The translations under genes were made by a program, and so were the position numbers. A stretch of DNA of 64,000 bases from Candidatus Magasanikiibacteriota bacterium (GTDB lineage: Bacteria > Patescibacteriota > Patescibacteriia > Magasanikbacterales > 2-02-FULL-50-9b): positions 46,560 to 110,559 of the forward strand of contig CAITMK010000001.1 in the NCBI GenBank assembly GCA_903893485.1. Reading direction: 5' to 3'. Under the pieces are notes generated by a model. That model worked only from the letters and a program-made list of their open reading frames with translations. It ran no database searches and was not told where the DNA came from. Below are positions 12,220-64,000 of the stretch, piece after piece. Position 1 is the first letter of the stretch. The number at the start of each line of letters is the position of its first letter.

Positions 12220-12260
12220 AACAACAGTATACCAAACAAATCGCCAAGCGAGTGAGAGTC

Positions 12261-12289
12261 TTGACAAAATATGCATTATGGTGTAGTCT
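12261..12289 (+). promoter_or_regulatory. Sigma70-like promoter for island A (TTGACA-N17-TAGTCT)
   Basis: An exact -35 hexamer and a 17-nt spacer are read directly. The -10 is weak. Confidence 0.4.
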
Positions 12290-12315
12290 CCTCCTTCCAA
12301 CACTGGAGGCCCACC

Positions 12316-12678
12316 ATGGGAAGGTTACACACACTCAGAGAAGCGCACGAAGCGGCGAAGAAACGTCTCGACGAAGTCTATGCCGAGGACGCGGCTGCGG
12401 CCGTCGAAATCCTGAAGGCAAAGGTTCCGGAGAGCTTGAGTCAGTGGAAAGAAAAGACAAAGCTCTTTCATTATCTGACGACAATCGGTGGCTTTACCGC
12501 CGAATACGAAACAGGTACCGCGGAAGACAGGTCGTTCCTCAAAGAACTGGGGTTCACAAACCTTCGCACCTTCACGAAGGCCCTGCAGACACTGAAGAAG
12601 GCCTGGGCCGGGGAGGTGGGTATCTGGATCACCCACCAATCCGGACGCCACATCACAGTCACGTTCTCCGCGATCTGA
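12316..12678 (+). CDS. Hypothetical protein, GC-rich island A
   Basis: 120 aa, MGRLHTLREAHEAAKKRLDEVYAED... A strong SD (GGAGG) lies 7 nt upstream, with a TTGACA-N17-TAGTCT promoter-like element further upstream. The GC content is clearly above the flanks. Confidence 0.6.
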   Translation: MGRLHTLREAHEAAKKRLDEVYAEDAAAAVEILKAKVPESLSQWKEKTKLFHYLTTIGGFTAEYETGTAEDRSFLKELGFTNLRTFTKALQTLKKAWAGEVGIWITHQSGRHITVTFSAI

Positions 12679-12717
12679 TCGCACGCCATGTCCCCAACCC
12701 GGACCTCTGGCGGTTTT

Positions 12718-13746
12718 TTATTTTATGAACATTCCATCTCCAAAACTGAAAAACCGATATTCGCGATTAATCGCGTCGGCATAAATTTTCTTTAAATGTT
12801 CCAACCCGCCTTCCCCTAAAAATGCACTGACGAGTAAAAGTAATGTCGATTTCGGCAAATGAAAATTCGTCACAAGTCCATCGATGATTTTAAATGTGTA
12901 GCCAGGGTTGATAAAAATATTTATGTCACCTTCGAATGATTCGCCTGCCAAAATTTTTTCAGCGGCACCTTCAAGCGCACGCGTCGTAGTGGTGCCAACA
13001 GCAATCACACGCCGACCCACTTTTTTCGCCTCCGCAATCGCTCCTGCAGTTTCACGATCGACACTTACCCACTCACTGTGCATTGGATGCGCTTCAACTT
13101 CTTCAGTTTTCACAGGCTGAAACGTACCAATCCCCACGTGCAGTGTAACTTCCAAAAATGTCACGCCCGATGCCTGAATCTTTGCACGTAAGTCCTCTGT
13201 GAAGTGAAATCCTGCGGTTGGAGCCGCGACAGATCCAGTATGACGCGCATACACGGTTTGATACTCACCAAGCGTTGTAGGGCCATTTTTCACGTAGGGC
13301 GGGAGCGGAATCTCGCCGTGTTCATTTGCGAAATCGATAACCTCGGCAGCTGACATTTTTTCACCGCCTCGTGAAAATTTCATTTCGAATTCACCATCTT
13401 CGTGGCGCACGGTAACCTCACCAATAACAGTACCGGGTAATTCAACCCGCATTCCAGGCTGCAACTTTTTTCCAGGCTTTCCAAGGCAGAGCCATGCCTC
13501 ACTCGATGGACGAAGCAATAAAATTTCAACCGTACCAACACGAAGTCGTGCGCGAAACACTTTTGTGTTATTAAAAACCAATACATCATCTGGGCGTAAA
13601 TATTTTACAATATCAAAAAATTGTTCGTGGCGTGTTTCCCCGCTTGTGCGATCCACAACCAACAACTTCGAATGATCACGCGGCTCTACAGATTTCTGCG
13701 CGATACGTTCGGTGGGTAAAAAATAATCAAGTTCAGAGGTTTTCAT
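12718..13746 (-). CDS. queA: S-adenosylmethionine:tRNA ribosyltransferase-isomerase
   Basis: 342 aa. YFLPTERIAQKSVEPRDHSKLLVVDR...PLPPYVKN...GTTTTRALE are QueA signatures. It is convergent with tgt. Confidence 0.9.
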   Translation of the reverse strand: MKTSELDYFLPTERIAQKSVEPRDHSKLLVVDRTSGETRHEQFFDIVKYLRPDDVLVFNNTKVFRARLRVGTVEILLLRPSSEAWLCLGKPGKKLQPGMRVELPGTVIGEVTVRHEDGEFEMKFSRGGEKMSAAEVIDFANEHGEIPLPPYVKNGPTTLGEYQTVYARHTGSVAAPTAGFHFTEDLRAKIQASGVTFLEVTLHVGIGTFQPVKTEEVEAHPMHSEWVSVDRETAGAIAEAKKVGRRVIAVGTTTTRALEGAAEKILAGESFEGDINIFINPGYTFKIIDGLVTNFHLPKSTLLLLVSAFLGEGGLEHLKKIYADAINREYRFFSFGDGMFIK

Positions 13747-14684
13747 TTGAGATATTTTTTATTTGCGATTTGCTCATCGAGTGTACGCGCGTAATGTGCA
13801 ACACCGTCAGGTCCGACTAAGAAAAAAATATAGTTATTTGGCGTTGGATTTTCTGCAGCTTCAATTGCGTCAAGTCCTGGATTACTGATCGGCCCTATTG
13901 GCAGTCCGCGCGCCGCATATGTGTTCCATGGCGAATTACTCTTTCGTTCAAGCGCCGTTGTGTACACGCTATCACGCGCGCTTGCATATGAAACCGTGGA
14001 ATCAAATTGCAGCGCCATACCCATTTTTAATCGGCGCCAAATAATGTCGGCAACCATTTTGCGATCAGCTTCGCTACGCACCTCTTTTTCCAAAATACTT
14101 GCAACGGTCACCACATCGTGCGAGGCGCGACCATTAGTCCTACGACCAAAATTATCAAGCATGGTGTGCACCAGTCCATCAACACCAAGACCCTTTGCAT
14201 CATAATAGTACGTGTCAGGAAATAAATATCCCTCGAGTGAAATAGTATCTGGCGCATCTTTTAAAAAAGAAAATTCGCTGCGATATTTTTTGTCTGCTCC
14301 ACCAATTTTCGCGGGCGTACCCACAAGCGCATATAATTTTTTTGCGCCAGACGGATCAACCGTTGCAATAATTTTTTGGATATCGCGCAAATCACTTCCT
14401 TCGGGGATTGTAATGCGCACCGCCGTATCGGCCGGCGAATCAAACAAATGTGCAACGCATAAAAAATTGCAATTCGCTGGAACCGCCACAGCGCCCGGAT
14501 ACACATGTTTAATGAATGGTCGAATCAAAAACCCAATACGAATTATTTTTGCAGCAACTAATTTTTGCGCCGCCGCAGACACCGAATCGCCCGGCGCAAT
14601 TTCAATAACACCCGGCTGCACACGCGTTCCCCACCATCCAAAAAATAAAATCGCCAAAAGCAAAACAGCAAAGAACTTTTTCAT
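13743..14684 (-). CDS. mltG: Endolytic murein transglycosylase MltG (YceG-like)
   Basis: An N-terminal TM helix is followed by a YceG domain (GYLFPDTYYYD, ASILEKE, PWNTYAARGLPIGPISNPG). The start is taken at MKKFF. Confidence 0.82.
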   Translation of the reverse strand: MKKFFAVLLLAILFFGWWGTRVQPGVIEIAPGDSVSAAAQKLVAAKIIRIGFLIRPFIKHVYPGAVAVPANCNFLCVAHLFDSPADTAVRITIPEGSDLRDIQKIIATVDPSGAKKLYALVGTPAKIGGADKKYRSEFSFLKDAPDTISLEGYLFPDTYYYDAKGLGVDGLVHTMLDNFGRRTNGRASHDVVTVASILEKEVRSEADRKMVADIIWRRLKMGMALQFDSTVSYASARDSVYTTALERKSNSPWNTYAARGLPIGPISNPGLDAIEAAENPTPNNYIFFLVGPDGVAHYARTLDEQIANKKYLK

Positions 14685-14685
14685 A

Positions 14686-15738: not shown

Positions 15739-16268
15739 ATCTTAAGGGTGAGAGCAGATATTACCATGCCCAGCACCCATCCGGCAATAACATCGCTCGG
15801 ATAATGAACCCCCACAAAAACACGTAAAATACCAATACAAAACGCCAAAATTCCGCCCCAAATTGCAGACTTTTTATGGCCAAATTTCCAAAGCCACACC
15901 GCCCCTGCGGCTGCCAGTGTTGCATGCTCAGAGGGAAACGATTTTAACACACTTGGCGGACTAACAAACGGAATAAACCCAATCGTTACAAATGGCCGCG
16001 CGCGAAAATAAAGCGCGCCAAAAAAACGATTTACCAAATACGAAACCGACAAAATTAAAACCAGCAAAAGTAGCGCATTAAATCGCCGGCGTTTTTGCAG
16101 ATGCCACCACACCGAAATGGTAACGCCGGCAAGCACCACAGGCAAAATATAATTCAAAAAAACTACTAATTTACGCCAAGCCGGTGCTGAGATTCCAAGT
16201 CCGTGAAAAAAGATGACGATATTTGCATCCAACATATATTCAGTATACCAAACTAAATAAAAAAACAC
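15717..16268 (-). CDS. PAP2-family (undecaprenyl-diphosphate-like) phosphatase
   Basis: Polytopic membrane protein carrying PSEH and GVHYPSDV, the acid-phosphatase motifs. Confidence 0.8.
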   Translation of the reverse strand: MFFYLVWYTEYMLDANIVIFFHGLGISAPAWRKLVVFLNYILPVVLAGVTISVWWHLQKRRRFNALLLLVLILSVSYLVNRFFGALYFRARPFVTIGFIPFVSPPSVLKSFPSEHATLAAAGAVWLWKFGHKKSAIWGGILAFCIGILRVFVGVHYPSDVIAGWVLGMVISALTLKIWKRYIL

Positions 16269-16300
16269 TTGCAGCCGCCCCCGAAGGACAACTGGAAGTG
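16252..16300 (-). terminator. Rho-independent terminator downstream of the island B gene
   Basis: On the minus strand, a CACTT-C-CAG...CTG-C-AAGTG stem-loop is followed by TTTTTATTTAG. Confidence 0.5.
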
Positions 16301-16325
16301 TTTGCTCGCGCCTGCTACGAGAGGC

Positions 16326-17003
16326 TTACTTATCGCGCGCCGTGACGATTGCACGCTTGGCATGCCGCATCACGAATCGCAGGATGTGGCTTTCGTTCGG
16401 ATCAACGAGCGTTACCGCGAGGCCGACAAAGTGTGACAGCCGGCTTTCGATGTGGCACGGTACAAACTCAAACGAAACCGGAACACCGCGCGCAACCGCG
16501 TGCCCCACATACCGAATTCGTCGCTGACTTTCTCCAAGCGCCACCACCTCTGCACCAAGTTCGTACAGATGTGCAATGGCCGCGAATTCCTGTGAGCACG
16601 AAAACGCCCACATATCTTCAATGGGCCAACCATCGAAGGGCGTGATAATGTCGTCACTCATGAGCCCCGAATGGCCAAGTAAGTAATCCTTGCCTGACCA
16701 CGCGTAGGACTTACCGTTTCCATGATGATCGCCGCCCAAAAGCACGATTGCTTTGTAACCGCCTTCGTTGTACAGCTCCACGGCCCGATCGAGCAGCGCC
16801 TTGAATCGATCTTCAATTTCACCATCAGCGCTCACTTCTCGGCCGAGCACAACCAAGTATTTCCAACCAGCAAGCGGTGCGCCGGGCATCTCCCCCAGTT
16901 CTTCCAGTTGATCCAGCCGCCGTTCCAATCGCAGACTGTAAAAAACCCACTGTAAAAAGAAAGGTCCAAATACCACCAGAGCCGCAAATCCAAAATACTG
17001 CAT
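16326..17003 (-). CDS. DUF218/YdcF-like (SanA/ElyC family) protein, GC-rich island B
   Basis: YLVVLGREVSADGE...AIVLLGGDHHGNG fits the DUF218 core. An N-terminal TM helix is present. A strong SD (GAGGAGG) lies 6 nt upstream of the ATG at 17003. The GC content is about 58%. Confidence 0.55.
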   Translation of the reverse strand: MQYFGFAALVVFGPFFLQWVFYSLRLERRLDQLEELGEMPGAPLAGWKYLVVLGREVSADGEIEDRFKALLDRAVELYNEGGYKAIVLLGGDHHGNGKSYAWSGKDYLLGHSGLMSDDIITPFDGWPIEDMWAFSCSQEFAAIAHLYELGAEVVALGESQRRIRYVGHAVARGVPVSFEFVPCHIESRLSHFVGLAVTLVDPNESHILRFVMRHAKRAIVTARDK

Positions 17004-17038
17004 CGTTCGCCTCCTCGCCATTTCGGCAGGTTGCCAGA

Positions 17039-17067
17039 ATCCTATCTCTATTTTATAAAAAAGTCAA
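17039..17067 (-). promoter_or_regulatory. Promoter-like element for island B (TTGACT-N17-TAGGAT)
   Basis: Read on the minus strand; the -35 overlaps the gpmI stop codon. The -10 is weak. Confidence 0.3.
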
Positions 17068-18653: not shown

Positions 18654-19325
18654 TTACAGCCCAGCAAATTCAGCAGGCATCTGATAATCAGGAAATTTCT
18701 GGGAAAATTTATCGCCAGATTTTTTTATATCTGCCGCAACACTTTTGTATTCTGGTGAGTTTGACAGCTTAAGTCCTGCAAATGCCTGCAGAATCGCATA
18801 TTTTTGAGACATAGCATCCAAATCCATCTTTATACCACTAATAAACATGTTAGGAGAACGATGATGTTCAGCCATGTTAGCCTCCATCGATGGAGTAAGT
18901 CCTGTAAATTTAAACATCTTTTGTTTTTCGGAAAGCGTACCCTCGGAAAGAACACGTGATTGCGTACCAATTGCCCCATCTTCATCCTTCCCCTGAAAAA
19001 ATGAATATGAGATCTGATATTCACTATCTGCATGATTGACCAAATTTAATTTTGATGTATGATCACCATCACCGCTCTCAAGTATAGAGAACGAAGCTGT
19101 TCCAAATTGTGTCTCTCCTTGTGCTAATAACTTAAGACCATTTTCAGGTCTTGGTGCTGACGGAGGTCGTTCATCTGCATGAGCATTTGAAACAGCGCCA
19201 CCCATTAAACTCATCGCAACAAGTGCGCCGGAAATACGTTTTGCGAGTAACGAAGAAAGGCCTGTTTTTTTAGGTCCTACTGAAGATGACTCTTGATTAT
19301 TTGTCGATGGTTTTTCAAAACTCAT
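18654..19325 (-). CDS. Secreted hypothetical protein
   Basis: 223 aa. The signal peptide is ...ISGALVAMSLMGGAVSNAHA. No recognisable domain. Confidence 0.5.
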   Translation of the reverse strand: MSFEKPSTNNQESSSVGPKKTGLSSLLAKRISGALVAMSLMGGAVSNAHADERPPSAPRPENGLKLLAQGETQFGTASFSILESGDGDHTSKLNLVNHADSEYQISYSFFQGKDEDGAIGTQSRVLSEGTLSEKQKMFKFTGLTPSMEANMAEHHRSPNMFISGIKMDLDAMSQKYAILQAFAGLKLSNSPEYKSVAADIKKSGDKFSQKFPDYQMPAEFAGL

Positions 19326-23470: not shown

Positions 23471-23510
23471 TAAAAAAATGCCGACAGAATCTCCGAAGAG
23501 AAACTGCCGG
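23471..23510 (-). terminator. Rho-independent terminator for the island C gene
   Basis: On the minus strand, a compound hairpin CCGGCAG-TCTC-UUCG-GAGA-CUGUCGG is followed by CATTTTTTTATGC. Confidence 0.65.
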
Positions 23511-23539
23511 ACTTAAAACTTGAATCGCGCGATGAGACG

Positions 23540-24091
23540 CTATTCCTCGATCGGCTCCGTGCCCATGAGAAGCAGGGTGCGGCGCAGCGGCTGCCGACTC
23601 TTCACGTAGCGGTTCAGCAGATCCCAGTGCGACGCGACAAAAGCCCGTGCAAGCCGTCCGTGGCTGAATGCCGCATTGGATTCAGCAAACACGCACGGGT
23701 AATAGGTCTGCCCGTCCTGCTGCCAGGCCGTACCAGGAAACACCAGCACCGTTGAATTGGTGTCGAGCCCCAGTTCGGCGGGCAACTGAGCCCCCGCTTG
23801 AAGATTCGCGAGCAGCTCGATAGCATGTTCGCGACCAGCAGCGCTCGGCGGCATGTCACGCGCAATGCGCTCTTCCAGCTTGCTCTGCGTGTTCCTGCTG
23901 CGCGCAATGCGCGTAGCGCTCAAACGCTGAGGACCGAACGGCCCCGCAACATCCCAAGCCAGACGACGTCCGTCGACTTTCGACTTGAAGATATGCTCCG
24001 CCTCTGCCAAAGCCACCGTTATCAGATATTTTTTCAATGCCGCATTTCCCACAAGGCCCCCCTTTGCCGCGCTGGTTGTAGCGCGGGACAA
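23540..24091 (-). CDS. Hypothetical protein, GC-rich island C
   Basis: About 170-183 aa with no recognisable domain. The ORF-track start is a TTG. The true start is probably the GTG just downstream, 4 nt after a GGGGGG run, because a CCGCGCT/AGCGCGG hairpin sits at the extreme 5' end. Confidence 0.5.
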   Translation of the reverse strand: MSRATTSAAKGGLVGNAALKKYLITVALAEAEHIFKSKVDGRRLAWDVAGPFGPQRLSATRIARSRNTQSKLEERIARDMPPSAAGREHAIELLANLQAGAQLPAELGLDTNSTVLVFPGTAWQQDGQTYYPCVFAESNAAFSHGRLARAFVASHWDLLNRYVKSRQPLRRTLLLMGTEPIEE

Positions 24092-24096
24092 AAGTT

Positions 24097-24125
24097 ACAT
24101 TAGCAATAATATAAGCCGGTGTCAA
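24097..24125 (-). promoter_or_regulatory. Sigma70-like promoter for island C (TTGACA-N17-TAATGT)
   Basis: Read on the minus strand. The -35 is an exact hexamer. It is divergent from the NUDIX gene. Confidence 0.5.
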
Positions 24126-24162: not shown

Positions 24163-24615
24163 ATGGAGCACCCCGAAAAATTCCGCCCTTACGCGGCAGC
24201 ATATTTAGTTTTAATTAAAAATGACAAAATTTTATTATCGCGACGCGCCAATACAGGTTATCAAGATGGAAACTACAGTTTAGTTGCTGGCCATTTGGAT
24301 GGTGGCGAAACTGTATTACAGTGTATTACACGCGAAGCAACCGAAGAGGCTAATATTATTTTGTCGCCACAAAATTTAGACGTAATTTTAACCTTACATC
24401 GCCAGAGTCCATCGGATCGAGAATATTTTGATTTTTATGTGGGTGCTACAAATTGGACCGGTGAAATAAAAAACATGGAGCCGAAAAAATGCGATGATCT
24501 CGCGTGGTTTGATCTGGCGAATTTGCCAGAAAATATTTTGCCTGATGTAAAATTTGCACTGGATCAAATTAACGCTGGCAACCATTTTGCTGAATTTGGT
24601 TGGCCTTTAAAATAA
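24163..24615 (+). CDS. NUDIX hydrolase
   Basis: The Nudix box is GHLDGGETVLQCITREATEEANI. Confidence 0.88.
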   Translation: MEHPEKFRPYAAAYLVLIKNDKILLSRRANTGYQDGNYSLVAGHLDGGETVLQCITREATEEANIILSPQNLDVILTLHRQSPSDREYFDFYVGATNWTGEIKNMEPKKCDDLAWFDLANLPENILPDVKFALDQINAGNHFAEFGWPLK

Positions 24616-24644
24616 AAACACCGCACAAGGAAAACCCCGTGCGG
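24608..24644 (-). terminator. Rho-independent terminator for the island D mini-gene
   Basis: On the minus strand, CCGCAC-GGGGTTTTCCTT-GTGCGG is followed by TGTTTTTATTTTA. It lies directly after the 24676..24915 ORF. The plus-strand NUDIX stop sits inside the A-tract. Confidence 0.65.
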
Positions 24645-24675
24645 CACGCATTGCTGCTTGAAGCGCTGGTTGGCG

Positions 24676-24915
24676 CTATTTCGGATCGTCTGTTTTGACC
24701 CGCTTGCCGTCGGCCCCCATACCAACGACTTCGAATTCAAAACCTTCCGAGCCTTCAAGCGGTGGCGTCACGATTTTGACACCAGCAGCGCCAAGCGTGT
24801 TCTCCGTCGCCGCCCGACTATTCGGTACAAGTACCTCATTACCCACCCGACGTTCAGACCGCTTTGGACGCGTCGGCAACACCACTGGCAAATCCTCTGG
24901 CCGTTCATTACACAT
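24676..24915 (-). CDS. Small hypothetical protein (about 79 aa), GC-rich island D
   Basis: MCNERPEDLPVVLPTRPKRSERRVGNEVLVPNSR...KIVTPPLEGSEGFEFEVVGMGADGKRVKTDDPK. A GGGGGAAG SD-like run sits before the ATG. The ORF is bracketed by the tsf terminator upstream and its own terminator downstream. GC-rich. Confidence 0.5.
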   Translation of the reverse strand: MCNERPEDLPVVLPTRPKRSERRVGNEVLVPNSRAATENTLGAAGVKIVTPPLEGSEGFEFEVVGMGADGKRVKTDDPK

Positions 24916-24960
24916 AACTTCCCCCACAATTGCGCTCGGTTAGCGCGGTTGGACCTCATA

Positions 24961-26367: not shown

Positions 26368-26457
26368 AAATAGTCCTTTTTACGACATCGGCATCGCGCG
26401 GGAGCCAGGAAGGCAGGGCCCGAGCGGTTTGTAGCCGACTGATTGATTAATGCGCGT

Positions 26458-26486
26458 AGTTTAGCAGAAGGTGATAAAAAGGTCAA
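26458..26486 (-). promoter_or_regulatory. rpsB promoter (TTGACC-N17-TAAACT) with a leader of about 90 nt
   Basis: Read on the minus strand. The long GC-rich structured leader (GGGCCCTGCCTTCCTGGCTCCC) before the rpsB ATG is reminiscent of S2 autoregulatory leaders. Confidence 0.5.
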
Positions 26487-26487: not shown

Positions 26488-26539
26488 AATAAAAAAACCC
26501 ACCAGCGAGTCGCGAAAAGCGGCGACTACGAACTGGCGG
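26488..26539 (-). terminator. Rho-independent terminator for the island E gene
   Basis: On the minus strand, the outer stem CCGCCAG/CUGGUGG (one G-U pair) encloses the inner hairpin AGUCGC-N8-GCGACU and is followed by GTTTTTTTATTC. Confidence 0.6.
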
Positions 26540-26560
26540 ATTTATGCCTTTTGCCGTGCA

Positions 26561-27034
26561 TCAAAACGGCGCGGACTTTTCCCCGATGAAATTCATGAGG
26601 TCCTGCCCGATATCGGTCATGTCGGACTCGCTGAATCCAATGAGCCCTTTGGTAAAGCAGTCCTTGCCCGTCGTGTAAAGAAACCTCATCACGAGCGTAC
26701 GACGCTGACCTTCGAGTTCCACTGGGGTCGAGACAGTCAGCCAACACAGGATTTCCTGAATAGCGGTTCCGTAACGCTCAAAGTCGTCGATGGTCACCAC
26801 CTCTTCATTCAGCCTGACGAGCGGATCGAGCGCCCTGAATCCGGCGATGAGCGTCGGGATCATGGGATCATGGATCTCGCGGGGCATGCGAAATGGATTT
26901 GACTTATACTTCCGTTTCGGCGGATTGAGCGTGCGATCGACCATCCGTTGCAACGCTTCACAGGCACATGAAGCCGCATGAATCGCTCGCATATCGAGCG
27001 CAAGTCTAACCCCTACCAAATTTGTAGTACCCAT
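26561..27034 (-). CDS. Hypothetical protein, GC-rich island E
   Basis: 157 aa, MGTTNLVGVRLALDMRAIHAASCACEALQRMVDR... with no recognisable domain. SD GAGGTGA. GC-rich. Confidence 0.55.
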   Translation of the reverse strand: MGTTNLVGVRLALDMRAIHAASCACEALQRMVDRTLNPPKRKYKSNPFRMPREIHDPMIPTLIAGFRALDPLVRLNEEVVTIDDFERYGTAIQEILCWLTVSTPVELEGQRRTLVMRFLYTTGKDCFTKGLIGFSESDMTDIGQDLMNFIGEKSAPF

Positions 27035-27069
27035 GGTTTCACCTCAATTGCGCAAGCGTGCGCGAGCAA

Positions 27070-27098
27070 ATAGTACGACTCAAATTGAGTATTGTCAA
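27070..27098 (-). promoter_or_regulatory. Strong sigma70-like promoter for island E (TTGACA-N17-TACTAT)
   Basis: Read on the minus strand. The -35 overlaps the prfA stop codon. The spacer carries the small palindrome ACTCAA-T-TTGAGT. Confidence 0.6.
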
Positions 27099-28141
27099 TC
27101 CTCCGCCTCGTCCACCTTCTTCAACGCCAGAACGATTTCCTCAATATTCCCATCCATGATCTTCGGCAAATTGTGCCATGATTCTTCGATGCGATGATCA
27201 GTCACGCGGTCTTGTGGGAAATTATAGGTGCGAATTTTTTCGCTGCGGTCGCCGCTACCAATTTGCGATTTACGTTTCGCGGCGCGCTCGGCGGCAACGC
27301 GCGCAACTTCGGCTTCAAAAACACGAGCACGCATCACTTGCATTGCACGTTCTTTATTTTGCGTTTGCGAACGTTCGTCCTGACAGGTCACTACAATGCC
27401 CGTTGGAATATGCACCATGCGGATTGCACTGTATGTGGTGTTCACGGACTGGCCGCCCGCGCCCTGGGATGTGGTGGTTTCAATTTTTAAATCCTTCAAG
27501 TCCAAAACAATATCAACTGCTTCTGGCTCTGGCATGATTGCCACGGTCACGGCGCTGGTGTGCACGCGGCCGGCCTTTTCGGTTTCAGGTACACGCTGCA
27601 CGCGGTGCACGCCGGATTCAAACTGCAGCTCGCCGTACACGCCGCGGCCTTTAATTTCAAAAACAACTTCTTTAACACCGCCAATGCCCGTGCGGCTCAT
27701 GGAAATGAGATCAACTTTCCATCCGCGAGTGCCCGCGAACATGGAATACATGCGATATAATTCTGCGGCGAAAAGTCCTGCTTCATCGCCACCCACACCT
27801 GCGCGGATTTCAACGATAACGTTTTTGTTTGCAAATGGATCTGGTTCGCGGAGCAAATCTTTCAGCTGCACGTGTAAATTCTCGAGCTGCGCTTTCAAAT
27901 CTTCAACTTCGGCTTTCGCCAGGTCAATCATTTCAATATCTTCTTCCACAGCGACCATTTTTTCTGCGTCAGCCAGCGCCGCTTCTTTTTGATCAATCTC
28001 ACGGAGCACTTCTGCAGCAGGTTTGATTTCAGAATACCGCTGCGAAACCTGTTTTAATTTAAAAGCGTCTCCAATGACCGTTGGGTCTTGGAGCGCTTTT
28101 TCGAGCTCTTCAAATTCGGCGAGGATGGTATCGCCTTTCAT
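27095..28141 (-). CDS. prfA: Peptide chain release factor 1
   Basis: The GGQ motif ([25 protein letters not shown]) plus the RF-1 family context. Confidence 0.93.
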
Positions 28142-28147
28142 GGCAAA

Positions 28148-28438
28148 TTATTTACCAGCTGCAGTTTTGTCTGCACGCTTTGCTTTGCGCGCCTGTTCCT
28201 TTTCCGCTTTAGAGCGAGTTGAAACAGCAGCTGCGGCAATTTTGGTAGCTTTGTCTTGAAACTTCTCGATACGACGAGCAGTGTCAACAAAGTTCTGTTT
28301 ACCCGTGTAAAATGGGTGACATTTGCTGCAAAGTTCAATACGAAGCGCTGGCTGCGTTGAACCAACCTCAAAAGTGTTACCACATGCGCAGGTCACGTTA
28401 GCATTTGGAGTGTAGTTTGGGTGGATGGCCTTTTTCAT
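28148..28438 (-). CDS. rpmE: 50S ribosomal protein L31 with a Lys/Ala-rich C-terminal extension
   Basis: [48 protein letters not shown] matches L31. The start is at the internal Met; the ORF track starts from a TTG. Confidence 0.88.
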
Positions 28439-28531
28439 AGTGAAAGTAGTGTACATTTTAAGCCGGCGGTTGTCAAGAGTAAAAAAACAGACCCACCCCG
28501 CGCAACGTATGTCGCGCAAAGGCAGGTCAAA

Positions 28532-28993
28532 TTACCACGGGTCCTCACCCCGCAGAAGCTTCGCTTTTCGATCATCCCGAGTCCTTTGCTGCCAGTCAAG
28601 CTTTGCTCTCCAGCGTGCCGGGTCAGCGTCCATTCGCTCTGCATACGTCAGCTGCCTCGGCACGTTTCGTTGCAAACGCAGCTCCTTAGAGGAGATGCCG
28701 ATGATGTGTGCAACATGGGCGATTGCGGTCATTTCGTCGGCAATATTTTCAAACTCCTTGTAGATTCTGACAACCGATCCGCCTGCACCACATGCCTGGC
28801 ATAGGTATTGATTTGACCTACGATTCACGCGGAATGAGGCGGTCTTCTCGGCGTGAAACGGGCAGATGAAAACGAGCGCTCGCGCATTTCGCCGCACTGG
28901 CAAATAGCCGAACGATTTGAGTGCCTTTTCAATTGGATATGCCAGAACTCGCCTCATGAGTTCTGGACTGAACATCATGTGACGCTTTGACAT
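28532..28993 (-). CDS. Stand-alone CHC2 zinc-finger protein (DnaG-primase-type Zn-binding domain), GC-rich island F
   Basis: CPFHAEKTASFRVNRRSNQYLCQACGAGG matches the CHC2 primase zinc-finger signature CPFHxEKTPSF...CFGCG. 153 aa. SD GGAG. GC-rich. Proteins of this kind are typical of phage and plasmid replication modules. Confidence 0.65.
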   Translation of the reverse strand: MSKRHMMFSPELMRRVLAYPIEKALKSFGYLPVRRNARALVFICPFHAEKTASFRVNRRSNQYLCQACGAGGSVVRIYKEFENIADEMTAIAHVAHIIGISSKELRLQRNVPRQLTYAERMDADPARWRAKLDWQQRTRDDRKAKLLRGEDPW

Positions 28994-29013
28994 TTTAACT
29001 CCATCGAGTGTGC

Positions 29014-29090
29014 CCGCCGGGTTTGGTGGTGGAATCCCCTTGGAAATGACGGTTCTGCTCTGTCATCGTTGGCCGCCGGCGGGCACGTCC
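29014..29090 (-). promoter_or_regulatory. Structured GC-rich 5' leader of the CHC2 gene: an 11-bp inverted repeat enclosing an inner hairpin
   Basis: GTGCCCGCCGG...(about 50 nt with the inner ATGAC/GTCAT stem)...CCGGCGGGCAC, read directly from the sequence. Confidence 0.4.
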
Positions 29091-29192
29091 TGCTGCCAAA
29101 GCATCAGGTACCAACGAATCGGGGCCAACTGGCCAAAGAGATTAATAAAACGGTACAGTGATAAAGCTGTCTCTGTCAAGCATGCTTAGGAC

Positions 29193-29231
29193 AAAACTAA
29201 ATTGTATTAAAGTGTAATACAATTTAGTTTT
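29193..29231. repeat. Perfect 17-bp AT-rich inverted repeat (AAAACTAAATTGTATTA-aagtg-TAATACAATTTAGTTTT) followed by a T-tract
   Basis: Read directly. It lies between the island F TTGACA and the prmC start. It could be an operator or protein-binding site, or a plus-strand terminator or insulator. Confidence 0.6.
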
Positions 29232-29257
29232 TATTATTTTTGTGCTACCATAACCAC

Positions 29258-35227: not shown

Positions 35228-35272
35228 TCATTCTTTAAATCATTTTGCAGTTTACCATTAAGCGCTATGTGT

Positions 35273-35320
35273 ACGCAAATAAAAACGCCGACGCATCGCC
35301 CCTCCCCAGGCAATGCGTCG
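35273..35320 (-). terminator. Rho-independent terminator closing the island G operon
   Basis: On the minus strand, CGACGCAT-N16-ATGCGTCG (8 bp) is followed by GCGTTTTTATTTG. Confidence 0.7.
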
Positions 35321-35334
35321 ACAAAGTTGTACCG

Positions 35335-35901
35335 CTACGTCGCTTCAGCCGAAAAGCCGAACTGCAACGCGGTCTGTTGTTGGTGCCACGGCTTCTTCAC
35401 GTCGTACATGGCAAGCGCTTGATGAAACGCATCGTCCAGCACCTTGTAGATCGGGTGATGAACGCTGCCGCCCACGACGTGCTCCTGCAGGAACTCCATC
35501 TGATCGATCAGCATCTCGGCGCGCAGATGCAAAAGCGCGAACAGGTCGTTGCCGCGAAACTCTGCGAGCTCCAGATACAGCAGATGCATGTACGCGAGGC
35601 CCGTTTTCTCATCCTCTTTCATCCAGCCCCACGCAAATTCCGTGCGCGCGATGACCTGACGGAACTTGGCCGGCACCGTGCACCGCACATACGGCACCGG
35701 CAAACCGGACGCCGTGTCGATGAGGTAGCCCGACGCCAACTTGGGCAGCAGATCCGGCGGGTCCAGCTCCGTGACGAGCAAAAAGCGATCTTGAAAACCG
35801 CCATGCGTGACGAACCGACGCCAGCCCGTGGTAGCGTGCAACCACCAGCGGCCAGGATCCACCACGACTTCAACATCTTGAACCAAATCTTGAGAACTCA
35901 T
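35335..35901 (-). CDS. Hypothetical protein (island G, gene 3 of 3)
   Basis: 188 aa. AGGAG lies 7 nt before the ATG. GC-rich (over 60% in places). No recognisable domain. Confidence 0.6.
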   Translation of the reverse strand: MSSQDLVQDVEVVVDPGRWWLHATTGWRRFVTHGGFQDRFLLVTELDPPDLLPKLASGYLIDTASGLPVPYVRCTVPAKFRQVIARTEFAWGWMKEDEKTGLAYMHLLYLELAEFRGNDLFALLHLRAEMLIDQMEFLQEHVVGGSVHHPIYKVLDDAFHQALAMYDVKKPWHQQQTALQFGFSAEAT

Positions 35902-36037
35902 TTAGAAACTCCTGAGCAAAGGTCAGCAGGTTTGCCGACAAGAAAAAAGGATACTCGTAAATCGCTCTTATGTCAATATAAAAAATATCGTCGCCAACCC
36001 AAGGTAGTGGGCCAGCGACGCGTAACCGCTCTAAATA

Positions 36038-36457
36038 TCAACTCGACGTTGGTGTGGGTTCATCCACCTCGATTCCGTTAGACGAAAGGTTCTCGACCAT
36101 CATCTGTAAAAATGCGATCGTGAGCAGCTGCTGAAGCATCATTCGTGCAACTATCCCAGTGAACTCATGAAGCTCCGCCTTCTGACGAACGATAAAGTCT
36201 TCATCAGAAAGCATCCGCAGCTGAATAGCCTTCCACTCATTGGCATCCAAAAGCGGTTGCAGCTGCTCCATCACCCCGAGCCCGGTCTCCGAATCCGGAA
36301 TCGCATATAACCGGTACTCGGTAAATTCCTGGTTACGAATCGCGATGTAGAACACTCCAACGAGATCCTTGAATTCATTGTAATCGAGCAGATGGCCAAT
36401 ATGACCGCATGTTTCAAGAACATACGCCGGCTTTGTGGCTGCGTCTGGTTTGCTCAT
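36038..36457 (-). CDS. Hypothetical protein (island G, gene 2 of 3)
   Basis: 139 aa. A perfect AGGAGG lies 6 nt before the ATG. No recognisable domain. Confidence 0.6.
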   Translation of the reverse strand: MSKPDAATKPAYVLETCGHIGHLLDYNEFKDLVGVFYIAIRNQEFTEYRLYAIPDSETGLGVMEQLQPLLDANEWKAIQLRMLSDEDFIVRQKAELHEFTGIVARMMLQQLLTIAFLQMMVENLSSNGIEVDEPTPTSS

Positions 36458-36467
36458 CGTGTACCTC

Positions 36468-36980
36468 CTACTTCTTCACAGCCAGAAACAAGCACAGCTC
36501 GCTCCAACCAATATTGTTGAATGAAATGTCCAACGCGCGGCCACCTGCGAGCTCGTCCAAAAACGCGTACCCCTTGAAACCGAGTATTTCCAGCTCTGTA
36601 CCGAGGCACACAACCGGGAACTGAAGTTGCATATTGCGATATTTCGCCGCAAACGCCAACAGCTCAAGCAGTGTCGCCGGTCGAAGCCCACATGCACCCA
36701 TCTCAAAAAGAGCTTCCTCGGCCGTAACAACCCGCCGAAAATAAATCACCTCGAACCGAATTGTACGCTGCCCGTACTCAAAGATGTGGCGCAGCACTTG
36801 TATGCGCGTAAATTCTGGATGCTTCCAGTCGAACGCTGCCGCCGCAATCAAATCCTTGAACAAAATCTCGTAGTCCATGCGCACCAGCGCACTTACTACC
36901 CTAAACGCCGTTGCAAGCGCGGCCGCTTTTTTTGCCAGCTTACCCAAGTCAACATCTCTCCAATCTTCAAATGTCGCCAT
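36468..36980 (-). CDS. Hypothetical protein (island G, gene 1 of 3)
   Basis: 170 aa from MATFEDWRDVD. GGGAGGG lies 4 nt before the ATG, and the stop is 10 nt before the start of gene 2. No recognisable domain. Confidence 0.6.
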   Translation of the reverse strand: MATFEDWRDVDLGKLAKKAAALATAFRVVSALVRMDYEILFKDLIAAAAFDWKHPEFTRIQVLRHIFEYGQRTIRFEVIYFRRVVTAEEALFEMGACGLRPATLLELLAFAAKYRNMQLQFPVVCLGTELEILGFKGYAFLDELAGGRALDISFNNIGWSELCLFLAVKK

Positions 36981-37007
36981 GATACCCTCCCAGAGTTTGG
37001 TACCCAA

Positions 37008-37036
37008 AAATTAGCACCAAAATAGCCACAAGTCAA
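37008..37036 (-). promoter_or_regulatory. Sigma70-like promoter of the island G operon (TTGACT-N17-TAATTT, with an extended-10 TGn)
   Basis: Read on the minus strand. Its -35 sits back-to-back with the -35 of the secE promoter (AGTCAAgaTTTGACA). Confidence 0.55.
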
Positions 37037-37849: not shown

Positions 37850-37859
37850 TCCTGCCACT

Positions 37860-38295: not shown

Positions 38296-38325
38296 TAAAA
38301 ACCGCCCTTCGGGGCGGTTTTTTGT
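38296..38325. terminator. Bidirectional Rho-independent terminator after rplK
   Basis: AAAAA-CCGCCC-TTCG-GGGCGG-TTTTTTG. It also terminates the convergent island H gene. Confidence 0.85.
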
Positions 38326-38387
38326 TGCAAAAAAAAGACGCCAGTTGGTATCAGTAGCGCGCAGCCACCGACATACCTTCTGACGTT

Positions 38388-39066
38388 TCACTTCCTGAAC
38401 AAGGCCCGCAGCACGCTCAGCGAAAATTCGAATCGAATCACGCGCAAGTCGCCGTCCGCCAATTCAAGATGTTTCTTCATGGCGCTGTGCGAGGACATGG
38501 TCCGCGCCTGTTCGTAGACCTCAATCGCAGTACCCGGCGGAAACAGATTGATCTGATCGACCGAGGTAACACGCTGCGAAAACGCGGTCGGCGCCTCGCT
38601 GCCCGCTCCCTGCACCTCCACGAAATGCGTGTAGTGCTGACGAACACGTGTCTGACCACCAAACGGTGCCGCAATAACCCCATGCCCCTTTACTGGTAGC
38701 GCAAGCTCATGATACGGGCCGGAAGCGTCGGTAGCACCCGGCCGCAGTTGCTGCCGAAGCACCCAACGATGTTTGCCGCCGTCAACATCAGACCACCAGA
38801 TCACCAGCGTCGCGTCAGCCATGAGGCTGAGCACCGCGCGATCCCCTCTACGAATCGCGATGCCCGCGAGCAGTCCACCGGCGAACGGTGTCATGCACAC
38901 GACACCACTTTCCGGCGTAACGGACATACTTTCGCGACTAAGCCCGACGCTTTTCAGCGCTTGGATTGCAGGCAATGTCACCCGACCATCCAAGCACTCA
39001 AACAGCAGGTCTTTGGGTTTCTTCACAGATACCGGCGGCTCCTCGAGCCGAATGTCTGACTGGCAC
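38388..39066 (-). CDS. Hypothetical protein, GC-rich island H
   Basis: About 225 aa, MCQSDIRLEEPP... AGGAGG lies 6 nt before the ATG. GC-rich. No recognisable domain. Confidence 0.55.
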
Positions 39067-39094
39067 ATGGCCAACCTCCTTCGAAATGTGGTTT

Positions 39095-39139
39095 AAGATA
39101 ACAAAAGAGCACCGCCAACAATATCAAATTGTTGGCGGT
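39095..39139 (-). terminator. thrS Rho-independent terminator (12-bp perfect palindrome)
   Basis: On the minus strand, ACCGCCAACAAT-ttgat-ATTGTTGGCGGT is followed by GCTCTTTTGTTATCTT, 15 nt after the thrS stop. The same span also reads as TTGACA-N17-TATTGT, which could drive the downstream island H gene. Confidence 0.75.
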
Positions 39140-39160
39140 TTGTCAATAGTAGCTCTTAAA

Positions 39161-41032: not shown

Positions 41033-41896
41033 TTATAAGCGCTCATCAAGTGGAGATTTTGTGGGCTGCACTCGATTCTGATCTGCCATACGTTTGAGCA
41101 CGGCCATTGGATCTTCAGCTTGTGGCGCAACTACCGGAGCGGGCGGTTGCTGCACAGGTTGCCCTATATATTGTGGTGGTGGCTGAGTTGGTATTGGCGG
41201 CATCACAGGCTGATTATTCATCGGCGCAACTGGCATCTGACCAGATCCATATTGCTCTGGCCCGCCATAACCAGGGGCATATCCGGGTTGTCCCGTCCAA
41301 GGCATTTGTGGCGGTGCAAACCGTGGATCTGGATTATAATTTGGACCATACACGCCCGGTGTATTTACTGGGTGATACTGTGGCGCACCAGAATAAACAT
41401 AGCCTGGAGGTGCCATTTGTGGCTGCGGGTATCCTCTCATATTTGGTGGTGGTGGCGGCATTGGCCCACCATATCCCATATTTGAACCACCCATCCCCAT
41501 GCCACTATAACGTGGACTGCCATCTGGCCAAACAGCCTGCCCTGGCATCGCTGCTCGACCGGTGCCGCCGACCATACGCATCTGAGGCATGTTTACACCA
41601 ACTCCACCAGAAACATAAACATTAATTCCCGGATTTGCCTCGGCTTCAGCTGGATGAATTGCGTTTAAAGCGCTTAAAGCACCCGCAGCTAAAAGTGCAT
41701 TACGAACTGATCGTGATGCATGCGAACCGGTCATGCGGAATTTAGCAAAAATTCGACTCAACACATGTGGATTTTCTGCACGTAAAGTTGTCGCAGCTTC
41801 GCTCGCACGCTGTTTTGTATAAACTTCTACACCACTTAACCCATGAGCAGCGCGATCTTCTGGTCTTGGCGCCCAATTATGTTTATCCATGTTCAT
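41033..41896 (-). CDS. Pro/Gly/Tyr/Gln-rich low-complexity protein
   Basis: 287 aa. The N-terminal ~55 aa precede an internal signal-peptide-like segment (RSVRNALLAAGALSALNAIHPAEA). The remainder is PG-rich repeats (GYGGPMPPPPPNMRGYPQPQMAPPGYVYSGAPQYH...). There is a 1-nt gap to the upstream gene. Confidence 0.5.
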   Translation of the reverse strand: MNMDKHNWAPRPEDRAAHGLSGVEVYTKQRASEAATTLRAENPHVLSRIFAKFRMTGSHASRSVRNALLAAGALSALNAIHPAEAEANPGINVYVSGGVGVNMPQMRMVGGTGRAAMPGQAVWPDGSPRYSGMGMGGSNMGYGGPMPPPPPNMRGYPQPQMAPPGYVYSGAPQYHPVNTPGVYGPNYNPDPRFAPPQMPWTGQPGYAPGYGGPEQYGSGQMPVAPMNNQPVMPPIPTQPPPQYIGQPVQQPPAPVVAPQAEDPMAVLKRMADQNRVQPTKSPLDERL

Positions 41897-44243: not shown

Positions 44244-44309
44244 TGTATCAAAAAAATAACCTCCGGGCCAGCGCGAACGCTAACACCGAAGGGTTACTGC
44301 TCGCGAGGG

Positions 44310-44936
44310 TTATCCCGCGGCGTGTGGCTCATCCACCAAAGAGACGGAAAACGGCAGCCACTGCGCAAGCGCGGCGCTCAGCTCAAGCCGAAACGCACCT
44401 TCGCCAATCATTCCGGACAATTCGATGAGTTTTCCATGCCAATTCACAAACGCCTGTACTTGTTCACGATCATGCACGTCGCTGAACTCGACACGAATCT
44501 TGTATAGAATCTGCGTTGGCCTCTGTCCACGGTTGTGTGCCACATGACACATTTGAAAATCCATTACTGGATCCACCGTGAAGATGCGCTGCATATCCCG
44601 CGAATGCACGCCTGGCGGCGGCACATAAACATCCAGCGACGGATAATACGGAAGCCACCAGAAACTGCGGTTCGGTGAAAGATCCTTTGGCAGAACAATA
44701 ACCAGTGTTCCACGCGCCTTGAGCCCGTCGGAGACGTGTGATGCAAGAAGAAAGCAGACTCCGGCAACGAGCAGCATGATCACTGTCGGTACTACTGCCG
44801 GAAAAAGTGGGTACGCCAACGCAAGCGCCACAAAGAGGATGCAGCCACCAGAAGAGTTCAGAAGATAAAGCAATCGCCGACTCGCAGGCGGAGCAACCTT
44901 CGCCAGACAAGGAAGTTTATTCGTAGAATCCGACAT
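44310..44936 (-). CDS. Hypothetical membrane protein, GC-rich island I
   Basis: About 208 aa from MSDSTNK, with two N-terminal TM helices. GGGAG lies 6 nt upstream. The ORF track extends to 44981. GC-rich. Confidence 0.5.
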   Translation of the reverse strand: MSDSTNKLPCLAKVAPPASRRLLYLLNSSGGCILFVALALAYPLFPAVVPTVIMLLVAGVCFLLASHVSDGLKARGTLVIVLPKDLSPNRSFWWLPYYPSLDVYVPPPGVHSRDMQRIFTVDPVMDFQMCHVAHNRGQRPTQILYKIRVEFSDVHDREQVQAFVNWHGKLIELSGMIGEGAFRLELSAALAQWLPFSVSLVDEPHAAG

Positions 44937-44985
44937 GACCGACTCCCATAGCTCACTTGGAGCACGTCCTTCATTGGACATTACA

Positions 44986-45014
44986 GGTATACCAGCCTAT
45001 GGCCATAGTGTCAA
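44986..45014 (-). promoter_or_regulatory. Sigma70-like promoter for island I (TTGACA-N17-TATACC), with the perfect palindrome CTATGGCCATAG in the spacer
   Basis: Read on the minus strand. The 12-bp palindrome fills most of the spacer and could be an operator. Confidence 0.45.
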
Positions 45015-62188: not shown

Positions 62189-62210
62189 AAATTTTTTGCT
62201 GATTAAGCGA

Positions 62211-63362: not shown

Positions 63363-63378
63363 ATGAATTAGTGGATGG

Positions 63379-63407
63379 ATTGTAACAGAGTGAGGCCGGG
63401 GCGTCAA
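63379..63407 (-). promoter_or_regulatory. rpsA promoter (TTGACG-N17-TACAAT)
   Basis: Read on the minus strand, immediately after the island J terminator and 19 nt before the rpsA ATG. Confidence 0.6.
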
Positions 63408-63408
63408 C

Positions 63409-63464
63409 CCCCAAAAATAAAAGTGCGCGGAACCTGTAGACGGTGGTGTCTGCAGGTTCCGCGC
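63409..63464 (-). terminator. Rho-independent terminator for the island J mini-gene
   Basis: On the minus strand, the 17-bp stem GCGCGGAACCTGCAGAC / GUCUACAGGUUCCGCGC (one G-U pair) is followed by ACTTTTATTTTTGGGGG. Confidence 0.8.
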
Positions 63465-63489
63465 GGAGGGCGCGTGAGAGTTGTTCGGC

Positions 63490-63690
63490 TTAGCAGTAAG
63501 CCAAGCCGCGACCGCCGGGGCCGTGCCGCACGCGGTCAATGGCCACAGGATCGATCGGCTGACCAGGCGGCCGGCGATCAGCTGCGCGGAACGGATGCCG
63601 ATTCAGTGCCGCGCGTGCCAGCGGCAAATCAAGCGTCTTCAACTTAGCGCCGAGATAGCTGGGCTGTTGCCCGACTTGATTCTGATTCAT
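63490..63690 (-). CDS. Small hypothetical protein (about 66 aa), GC-rich island J
   Basis: MNQNQVGQQPSYLGAKLKTLDLPLARAALNRHPFRAADRRPPGQPIDPVAIDRVRHGPGGRGLAYC. The ORF is framed by GGAG-N6-ATG, a consensus-like promoter and a strong terminator. GC-rich. Confidence 0.5.
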   Translation of the reverse strand: MNQNQVGQQPSYLGAKLKTLDLPLARAALNRHPFRAADRRPPGQPIDPVAIDRVRHGPGGRGLAYC

Positions 63691-63734
63691 GATCATCTCC
63701 TTCAGCCCAATATTGACGGGCTTGCTTGCGACAC

Positions 63735-63763
63735 ATTAAAGCACAATAAACACATTTTGTCAA
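63735..63763 (-). promoter_or_regulatory. Sigma70-like promoter for island J (TTGACA-N17-TTTAAT, with an extended-10 TGc)
   Basis: Read on the minus strand, 8 nt after the stop of the upstream GC-rich ORF. Confidence 0.55.
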
Positions 63764-63770
63764 CCCTGAA

Positions 63771-63998
63771 TTAGCGCCTCAGGGCATCCAAAACCGAACG
63801 AAATTCTGCCGGCAGCGCTGGATACTGTTCCAACGTTTGCTTAATCAAGACAACACTTTGAGTTGCCGTACACCAGGCGGCGGAACCTCGCGCCAAGAGC
63901 TGACACGAAATCGACCGCGGCAACACGTCGGTTTCCTTATGGAAAAACAGCAGGCTCCACTCGGTCTGAACCGAAAAAACCATATTACGAAGAACCAT
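63771..63998 (-). CDS. GC-rich hypothetical ORF at the window edge; it may extend past the right edge of the window
   Basis: ...LPRSISCQLLARGSAAWCTATQSVVLIKQTLEQYPALPAEFRSVLDALRR* with the stop at 63771. The true start is unknown because of the window edge. Confidence 0.35.
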   Translation of the reverse strand: MVLRNMVFSVQTEWSLLFFHKETDVLPRSISCQLLARGSAAWCTATQSVVLIKQTLEQYPALPAEFRSVLDALRR

Positions 63999-64000
63999 TT

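Follow-up and report, generated by a model that had tools for sequence, protein, structure and literature searches.

GC-rich orphan genes with their own predicted promoters and terminators lie between housekeeping genes of a Patescibacteria chromosome

What are the short, GC-rich islets that lie between the housekeeping genes of a Candidatus Magasanikiibacteriota chromosome, and how did they come to be there? We addressed this question for a 64,000-nt stretch of contig CAITMK010000001.1, referred to here as the window, in which the original prediction had placed at least ten "moron-like" cassettes in islets A to J. At those positions lie 12 cargo open reading frames (ORFs) in 11 transcription units. 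We think it probable, with some reserve, that they are serially imported, insulated and separately expressed orphan genes in a chromosome of the Patescibacteria, or Candidate Phyla Radiation (CPR). A unit of this kind would consist of a near-consensus sigma-70 promoter with an exact -35 hexamer, a leader of 30–150 nt that carries a Shine–Dalgarno (SD) site, a GC-rich ORF of 66–226 codons and an intrinsic terminator.

The cargo genes stand apart from their surroundings in composition. Mean GC content is 55.6% (range 49.5–62.3) for the 12 cargo ORFs and 44.9 ± 3.0% for the 55 backbone ORFs, in a window with an overall GC of 45.8%; at third codon positions (GC3) the corresponding means are 62.1% (53.7–75.1) and 40.4 ± 6.9%, and both contrasts are significant at p ~ 6e-8 (Mann–Whitney). 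The GC-rich islets between housekeeping genes are therefore real when GC and GC3 are computed gene by gene. The ten islet intervals have 52.5–58.0% GC, which places them in the 94.5th to 99.9th percentile of same-length windows, although the 55–62% first assigned to them is correct only for C, H and J, with A, B, D, E, F, G and I at 52.5–55%. A dinucleotide relative-abundance signature that is normalised for base composition also separates the two classes, with a delta* of 0.135 between pooled cargo and backbone compared with 0.045 ± 0.016 for subsets of the backbone, none of 300 of which reaches the cargo value. The amino-acid usage of the cargo is ordinary for GC-rich genes.

Such islets could in principle be non-coding, either GC-rich structured RNA or spacer DNA in which long ORFs result from a scarcity of stop codons, but we regard this as very improbable. 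In A, B, C, E, F, G, H and I the stop-free ORF is longer than in composition-matched shuffles (0–13 of 500 reach the observed length), and in the called frames of all cargo ORFs GC content is greater at first than at second codon positions (GC1 > GC2) and GC3 is high. An SD motif at the correct distance from the start codon precedes 12 of 12 genes, F contains a Pfam domain, B is conserved at the protein level (dN/dS 0.19) and transmembrane (TM) segments are predicted in B and I. Every cargo product is also a called gene on 4–12 near-identical public contigs from several samples. What speaks for a non-coding nature is that the ORFs of D and J are no longer than expected by chance (52 and 152 of 500 shuffles, respectively, reach their length), that most cargo proteins are without homologues, and that a single-sequence AlphaFold2 (AF2) model of H is uninformative, with a pLDDT of 31.6. 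No Rfam family matched in the window, and given the strong coding signals we reject the structured-RNA reading for most islets and retain it for D and J; the coding status of D is less certain, and that of J is uncertain.

Predicted expression signals coincide with the cargo. The pattern TTGAC(A/T)-N16–18-TAnnnT occurs 11 times in the 64 kb, compared with 4.5 ± 2.3 times in shuffled sequence, and eight of these exact matches immediately precede A, B, C, E, F, G1, G3 and H; the remaining three serve rpmE, secE and rplK. The predicted promoters of I and J have TTGACA and a 17-nt spacer with a weaker -10, and D has no promoter of its own at the consensus level, so the expectation that most cassettes carry their own promoter holds. 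The same is true of their terminators, as a predicted stable hairpin followed by a T-tract ends all 11 units. An overlap of the -35 hexamer with the upstream stop codon, proposed for several cassettes, is found only at E, where it includes the TGA of prfA; at B and H the -35 is 10–14 nt past the stop. A generic scan gives totals only ~1.5 standard deviations above shuffles; the signal is in the position of the best sites, not in their number.

A second contrast is in translation initiation. All 12 cargo genes have a leader with a strong SD motif (GGAGG, GAGGTG, AAGGAG or GGGGG) at the proper distance from the start codon, while most backbone genes are without an SD; mean pairing energies are -8.1 and -1.6 kcal/mol, respectively. 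Many first-in-operon backbone genes instead have a -10 hexamer 6–9 nt before the ATG, an arrangement seen for none of the cargo genes. This contrast and the difference in dinucleotide signature are points that the original prediction did not contain. The leaderless-type hexamers, which are TACACT, TATAAT, TAGAAT or TATACT and are not accompanied by an SD, are found at rpmE (28438–28476) and rplK (37821–37860), upstream of eno (20585), the SIMPL-domain gene (21364) and hyp306 (33184), at 46939, and also at gpmI. Related contigs L081 and L082, introduced below, have the same arrangement for rpmE, gap, pgk and PAP2. Judged from these motifs, leaderless mRNAs appear to be a main expression mode in this CPR lineage.

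To compare junctions we used three contigs of 4–17 kb from relatives (L081, L082 and L083), found by a metagenome scan with tsf; their identity to the window is 81% for tsf, 80–83% for gap, 76–78% for prfA and 77–78% for gpmI. They cover the sites of C/D, E, F and B, and no relative contig spans A, G, H, I or J. The clearest results are for E and F. Cassette E (26488–27098, minus strand) has a predicted promoter TTGACA-17-TACTAT (27098–27070) and a 157-aa ORF (27034–26561) with the SD GAGGTGA, and ends in a compound hairpin with T7. In L082 and L083 prfA|rpsB is uninterrupted, with 136–165 bp between the genes, and in the alignment E is a clean insertion of ~610 bp, with the prfA stop on one side and, on the other, the conserved promoter and structured leader of rpsB. 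Its boundary on the rpsB side coincides exactly with the -35 of the native rpsB promoter (TTGACC-17-TAAACT, 26486–26458, minus strand), which together with the conserved 5' leader (26368–26486, minus strand) is intact despite E. Cassette F (28484–29179, minus strand) has a predicted promoter TTGACA-18-TACCGT (29179–29150), a GC-rich leader of ~150 nt with the SD GGAG, and a 153-aa ORF (28993–28532) followed by a hairpin and T-tract that adjoin the rpmE -35. In L082 prmC and rpmE are uninterrupted and 46 bp apart, and compared with the relatives F represents ~700 bp of inserted DNA in front of the conserved rpmE -10, 9 nt and ATG.

Two other features of this neighbourhood are of interest in their own right. 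The rpsB leader (26368–26457, minus strand) is kept in four genomes (L082 at ~5560–5660, L083 at ~1445–1548 and L081 at ~3770–3880) and folds as a long hairpin with seven compensatory base pairs across them; it has no Rfam match at the gathering score and may be a clade-specific S2 autoregulatory leader. The rpmE-prfA pair (window 27095–28519) is inverted relative to the distant CPR loci L002, L006, L005 and L001, where the order is prmC-prfA-rpmE, all divergent from rpsB. Since the inversion is common to L081–L083, it is older than the insertions of E and F, and it is ruled out as their cause because L082 and L083 have the inversion without either cassette.

The precision of these boundaries raises the question of whether promoters are targeted. 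Modules could enter at resident -35 hexamers, through microhomology or a recombinase encoded elsewhere, and the resulting duplication of the hexamer would keep both the cargo and the downstream essential gene expressed. E is indeed bounded on the left by TTGACA, in the native position abutting the prfA stop, and on the right by TTGACC with the spacer and -10 of the native promoter. The left TTGACA of F retains its native upstream context (AAGCATGC in the window vs AAGCATC in L082 and L083), there is another TTGACA ahead of the native -10, 9 nt and ATG of rpmE, and the cargo units of three genomes all begin with an exact TTGACA or TTGACT. However, only two junctions are informative, and the same picture would arise whenever a unit with a promoter at its start is placed just ahead of another promoter. 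The cargo upstream of rpmE in L081 leaves the native promoter context intact, L082 has an insert at ftsW|hyp100 without such a repeat, the downstream junction of C does not fit, and we found no recombinase or conserved end sequence. A dedicated promoter-targeting process is, in our judgement, distinctly improbable.

The relatives have cargo of their own at these junctions, none of it related to that of the window. At prfA|rpsB, L081 has a MazF-like toxin gene and a 433-aa orphan with 56.5% GC, a TTGACA-17-TAGTTT promoter match and GGAGG, and at gap|pgk it has a 158-aa orphan with 61% GC and a GC3 of 0.72; at both junctions the GC-rich orphans of L081 are SD-led and have TTGACA promoter matches. 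The toxin gene (1804–2187; MazF/PemK-like, Pfam E 7.6e-7) is the sole clearly selfish-element-type gene among these junction inserts. In L082 there are two GC-rich orphans at ftsW|hyp100 and, at the site of B (gpmI|PAP2), a 181-aa orphan with AAGGAGG and a TTGACA promoter. The tsf|gap spacer, which in the window holds D, a NUDIX gene and C, is short in L082 and L083; L082 has one MazG-like gene only, on the opposite strand, L081 has two other small ORFs, and C is absent from this position in all three relatives. The presence of a pyrophosphohydrolase gene at the same site, NUDIX at 24163–24615 (plus strand) in the window and MazG-like at 6977–7360 (minus strand) in L082, looks like non-orthologous replacement. 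Turnover is not confined to GC-rich genes, because the low-GC hyp223 between eno and gpmI (18654–19325, minus strand; 223 aa, 40% GC, GC3 0.27, no SD, no Pfam) is also missing in L081 and L082; eno and gpmI are 3 bp apart in L082, and L081 has a different 106-aa ORF.

It could nevertheless be that the cargo genes are native, fast-evolving accessory genes that are inherited vertically and frequently lost, with GC content and SD use as properties of the gene class that result from selection or local mutational bias; GC-rich coding sequence, for example, may need an SD since unstructured leaderless initiation is unavailable to it. We consider this alternative unlikely but serious, and it draws its best support from cassette B. 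B (16262–17067, minus strand) is directly upstream of PAP2 and has a predicted promoter TTGACT-17-TAGGAT (17067–17039), the SD GAGGAGG, a 225-aa ORF (17003–16326) and a terminator at 16294–16272. It has one homologue, with 52% identity, on the 1-kb contig L117, where the gene overlaps the start of a PAP2 gene and so has the same neighbour as in the window. Conservation between the two is motif-wise, with a dN/dS of 0.19 and dS saturated at 2.5, and B is under purifying selection. Both copies have a GC3 (0.57 for B and 0.73 for the L117 homologue) above that of their neighbours (0.40 and 0.34).

The B protein has no Pfam match. In an AF2 model built from two sequences (pLDDT 69), a membrane helix at the N-terminus is followed by an alpha/beta, Rossmann-like domain whose fold may be YdcF-like. 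Membrane-anchored DUF218 proteins such as SanA and ElyC have a role in envelope lipid-carrier metabolism, which fits B as a partner of PAP2. It is probable that B is an older and functional membrane protein of YdcF/SanA-like type which works with the adjacent PAP2 phosphatase, and its conserved linkage, its dN/dS with saturated dS and its putative fold speak against counting it among moron-like cassettes. Synteny thus favours insertion at E, F and the C/D block, as first proposed, but not at B, which is present beside PAP2 on L117.

That no mobility signature and no donor were found also counts in favour of native genes. On the other side, the insertions of E and F are clean, with boundaries that coincide exactly with native promoter elements, and unrelated orphans are present at the same junctions in L081 and L082. 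Moreover, the native genes of the window without a Pfam match (the 873-aa ORF, hyp223, hyp232, hyp99, hyp285 and hyp306) are backbone-like in GC3 and without an SD, and the cargo signature is therefore not predicted by the absence of homologues alone. The difference in the composition-normalised dinucleotide signature also speaks against native genes. A CPR-wide rule that unique genes are GC-richer was rejected, as only 10 of 22 CPR loci fit it (Wilcoxon p 0.9); the window, L081 and L082 show the GC-rich unique-gene pattern, and L002, L004 and L007 provide individual examples.

As to where the cargo came from, searches for homologues differed in depth between proteins. H was searched exhaustively and C and B through a word index; the other cargo was compared with profile libraries, phage and plasmid DNA and PDB sequences, and 90% clusters were inspected. 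Searches of Pfam, PHROG, NCBIfam and PADLOC returned no match for any cargo protein except F, to which the original prediction had assigned a CHC2 primase-type zinc finger. F matches PF01807 (CHC2, Zn_ribbon_DnaG) over residues 30–103 (53.1 bits against a cutoff of 24.9, E = 2.8e-14) and is a stand-alone DnaG-type CHC2 zinc ribbon in which no TOPRIM or primase catalytic domain was found. It is also the sole cargo protein with PHROG matches, and its zinc ribbon alone matched PADLOC, through RT-DnaG-like models; membership of the cargo in defence systems was rejected. An exhaustive phmmer search with H against 1.84 billion representatives returned H itself and one marginal match (E 9e-4), and C in a set of 5.8 billion clusters returned only itself. 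The concatenated cargo, except F and J, had no tblastn match in 50,697 phage or 72,556 plasmid records. Scans of viral contigs with F, G1 and E gave no relatives, PDB sequence searches with B, G1, G3 and C were empty, and a codon-degenerate DNA pattern of H had no match in metagenome contigs.

These results bear on two further proposals. An origin from the host is disfavoured because ordinary host chromosomal genes would be expected to have relatives, and neither the searches with H and C, which gave no true homologues, nor the phage and plasmid searches provide any. An undescribed family of cassettes is not supported either. All-against-all BLASTP and tblastn of the cargo gave nothing below E 0.4; the islets have no shared terminal or internal repeats and no flanking repeats, with only the generic -35 hexamer and T-tracts in common; and library scans of the cargo proteins found no integrase or transposase domain. 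There is no tRNA gene in the 64-kb window. As judged from these comparisons, the units are not a sequence family, and no dedicated mobility machinery is seen.

The import of unrelated genes from elsewhere accounts best for these observations. Most units would have been gained singly, at boundaries between housekeeping operons, from an unsampled gene pool of higher GC in which canonical SD-led expression is used, and they would now contrast with resident genes that are AT-richer, SD-less and often apparently leaderless. GC-rich CPR relatives were considered as possible SD-using donors; in a crude SD survey of high-GC loci (L084, L087 and L088) no strong SD use was seen. We hypothesize that survivorship shaped what we see: a compact genome would keep only those inserts that bring their own promoter and halt their own transcript, so that the flanking essential genes are undisturbed. 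Survivors would then look insulated because selection keeps only inserts that neither read into nor silence their essential neighbours. From the strong promoter matches and SD sites we predict high expression of these small, lineage-specific proteins.

Several points weigh against import. No donor was found, nor were mobility genes, repeats or att-like sites. H is the sole cargo protein that was searched exhaustively for homologues. The promoters, terminators and SD sites are consensus-sequence matches, and GC-rich upstream sequence raises SD-like scores to some extent. The junctions are covered by three relative contigs of 4–17 kb, for which loss in the relatives is a possible alternative. 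Finally, because dS is saturated, the high GC of B is not explained by recent import with slow amelioration.

A bolder extension of the import reading, and one we consider improbable, is that high-GC plug-in modules reach the clade from a pool of its own that is still unsampled. These would enter without a recognisable integrase at or next to -35 hexamers and turn over rapidly between sister species, as a chromosomal counterpart of morons that supplies minimal, leaderless-mRNA genomes with lineage-specific proteins expressed at high level, such as ones for host attachment or for conflict with phage or host.

The remaining units have the following layout. Cassette A (12261–12722, plus strand) has a predicted promoter TTGACA-17-TAGTCT (12261–12289), a leader with GGAGG, a 120-aa ORF (12316–12678; GC 55.1%, GC3 0.68) and a hairpin and T-tract that adjoin the queA stop; seven public contigs carry a called gene for exactly this 120-aa product. 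Cassette C (23471–24125, minus strand) has a predicted promoter TTGACA-17-TAATGT (24125–24097), the SD AAGGGGGG and a 170-aa ORF with a GTG start (24052–23540; GC 60.2%, GC3 0.67), and its hairpin and T-tract are immediately ahead of the gap -10. Unit D (24608–24930, minus strand) lies past the tsf terminator and contains a 79-aa ORF (24915–24676) with the SD GGGGGAAG and a terminator at 24647–24618; it is a called gene on nine public contigs.

Islet G holds two units, both on the minus strand. G3-G2 (35979–37036) is a two-gene operon with a predicted promoter TTGACT-17-TAATTT (37036–37008), in which the 170-aa G3 ORF (36980–36468) is followed, after a 10-nt gap that contains GAGG, by the 139-aa G2 ORF (36457–36038) and a terminator at 36020–35989. 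G1 (35276–35976) has a predicted promoter TTGACA-17-TATCCT (35976–35948), the SD AGGAG, a 188-aa ORF (35901–35335; GC3 0.75) and a 16-bp terminator (35323–35286) ahead of the gyrB promoter. A longer plus-strand ORF at this site (35245–36081) was rejected as an antisense shadow; G1 is placed on the minus strand because its signals and the public gene calls support that strand.

Cassette H (38297–39146, minus strand) begins with a predicted promoter TTGACA-17-TATTGT (39146–39118) interleaved with the thrS terminator hairpin. Its 226-aa ORF (39068–38388) has the SD GGAGG and is followed by its own hairpin with T8 and then by the bidirectional rplK terminator (38322–38297); H is identical on seven contigs from several samples. 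In cassette I (44248–45014, minus strand) TTGACA-17-TATACC (45014–44986) precedes an ORF of 223 aa, or alternatively 208 aa, with two predicted TM helices (44981–44310), and its hairpin and T7 run into the -35-like TTGATA of a NUDIX gene. Cassette J (63409–63763, minus strand) has TTGACA-17-TTTAAT (63763–63735), the SD GAAGGAG and a 66-aa ORF (63690–63490), with a strong hairpin and T-tract upstream of rpsA; the product is a called gene on six contigs. A further GC-rich ORF upstream of J (63771–64000, minus strand; 51.8% GC, GC3 0.58) is truncated by the end of the window.

The window rpsB is at most ~53% identical to that of GTDB species representatives, and its best matches are Patescibacteria/CPR genomes (Buchananbacteria, Falkowbacteria, Kerfeldbacteria and several mislabelled metagenome-assembled genomes), with which the window has in common the local order gyrB ... 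L25 - prmC - prfA - rpmE | rpsB - tsf - gap. The same strain has been recovered from several public metagenomes (samples that contain it include ERZ18661749, ERZ27313554 and ERR4194672) at 99.96% DNA identity, with a longest contig of 115,558 bp. The backbone gene names given earlier agree with precomputed Pfam annotation on identical public contigs, except that the gene between pgk and eno encodes a SIMPL-domain protein and is not tpi. Codon usage is backbone-like in two lineage-specific genes. The first is the 873-aa ORF (9682–12303, minus strand), which has no Pfam match and is backbone-like in composition as well; the other encodes a 285-aa protein (41033–41890, minus strand), has high GC1 and GC2 with low GC3, and contains internal GTGGTGGTGG repeats, its product being probably Pro/Gly-rich. 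Between the prmC start and the F promoter there is a perfect 17-bp AT-rich inverted repeat, AAAACTAAATTGTATTA ... TAATACAATTTAGTTTT (29190–29235), a candidate bidirectional terminator, operator or recombination scar.

If expression is confirmed, the cargo would provide small, highly expressed, species-specific proteins as candidates for the host-interaction or conflict functions that distinguish close CPR populations. The presence of SD-led cargo beside SD-less, leaderless-type housekeeping genes bears on how CPR ribosomes choose start sites, and predicts that a functional anti-SD is retained in this lineage.

Among known systems, phage morons come closest. As described by Hendrix and colleagues, these are extra units of promoter, gene and terminator that sit among the conserved genes in lambdoid and HK97-like prophages. 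Like them, the units of the window appear autonomous, with their own predicted promoter and terminator, differ in composition from their flanks, are present or absent between syntenic neighbours and usually encode a small protein of unknown function. Unlike morons, they are found in a cellular chromosome among ribosomal, glycolytic and replication genes (gyrB, rpsB, tsf, prfA, gap, thrS and rplK), with no phage genes nearby and PHROG matches only for the zinc ribbon of F; there are ~12 units in 52 kb, and the cargo is GC-richer than its surroundings. The architecture claimed in the original prediction therefore holds at the level of consensus sequence, but the units do not lie within a phage or prophage, and we do not file them as morons because they are in a cellular chromosome and no link to phages was found.

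Integron cassettes are promoterless, with attC ends and an adjacent integrase. The cargo units resemble them in being unrelated small ORFs, mostly of unknown function, that would have been gained singly; unlike integron cassettes, the units are dispersed, have their own predicted promoters and carry no attC-like repeats at their ends. Horizontal-transfer hotspots, or islets between core genes, have reportedly been described in bacterial pangenomes by Oliveira, Touchon and Rocha in 2017. The differing accessory content of the relatives at prfA|rpsB, tsf|gap and gpmI|PAP2 is similar to this, but the islets of the window are single transcription units inside the most conserved housekeeping neighbourhood of a reduced CPR genome, and no tRNA, integrase or mobile-element remnant accompanies them. 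Of the marks of genomic islands, namely an integrase or transposase, flanking direct repeats or att sites and a neighbouring tRNA, none was found at the islets.

Whether bacterial orphan genes are imported or invented is an open debate (PMC13012023, PMC11293555). Synteny points to import for most E. coli ORFans, while in gut species the GC content of orphans matches that of conserved genes and virus-like orphans are lower in GC (PMC11293555, PMC13012023). Like species-specific ORFans, the cargo genes are short, have no homologues outside the species and show synteny that points to import. Unlike those of gut species, they exceed resident genes by ~11 points in GC and by 22 points in GC3, an unusual direction for imports, and they use different predicted signals for transcription and translation. 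The cargo orphans are thus set apart by three independent marks (composition with dinucleotide signature, promoter type and mode of translation initiation), and at E and F the boundaries of insertion are resolved to the base pair. Together these would make the window a clear natural example of import into a reduced symbiotic lineage, a setting in which horizontal gain is believed to be limited.

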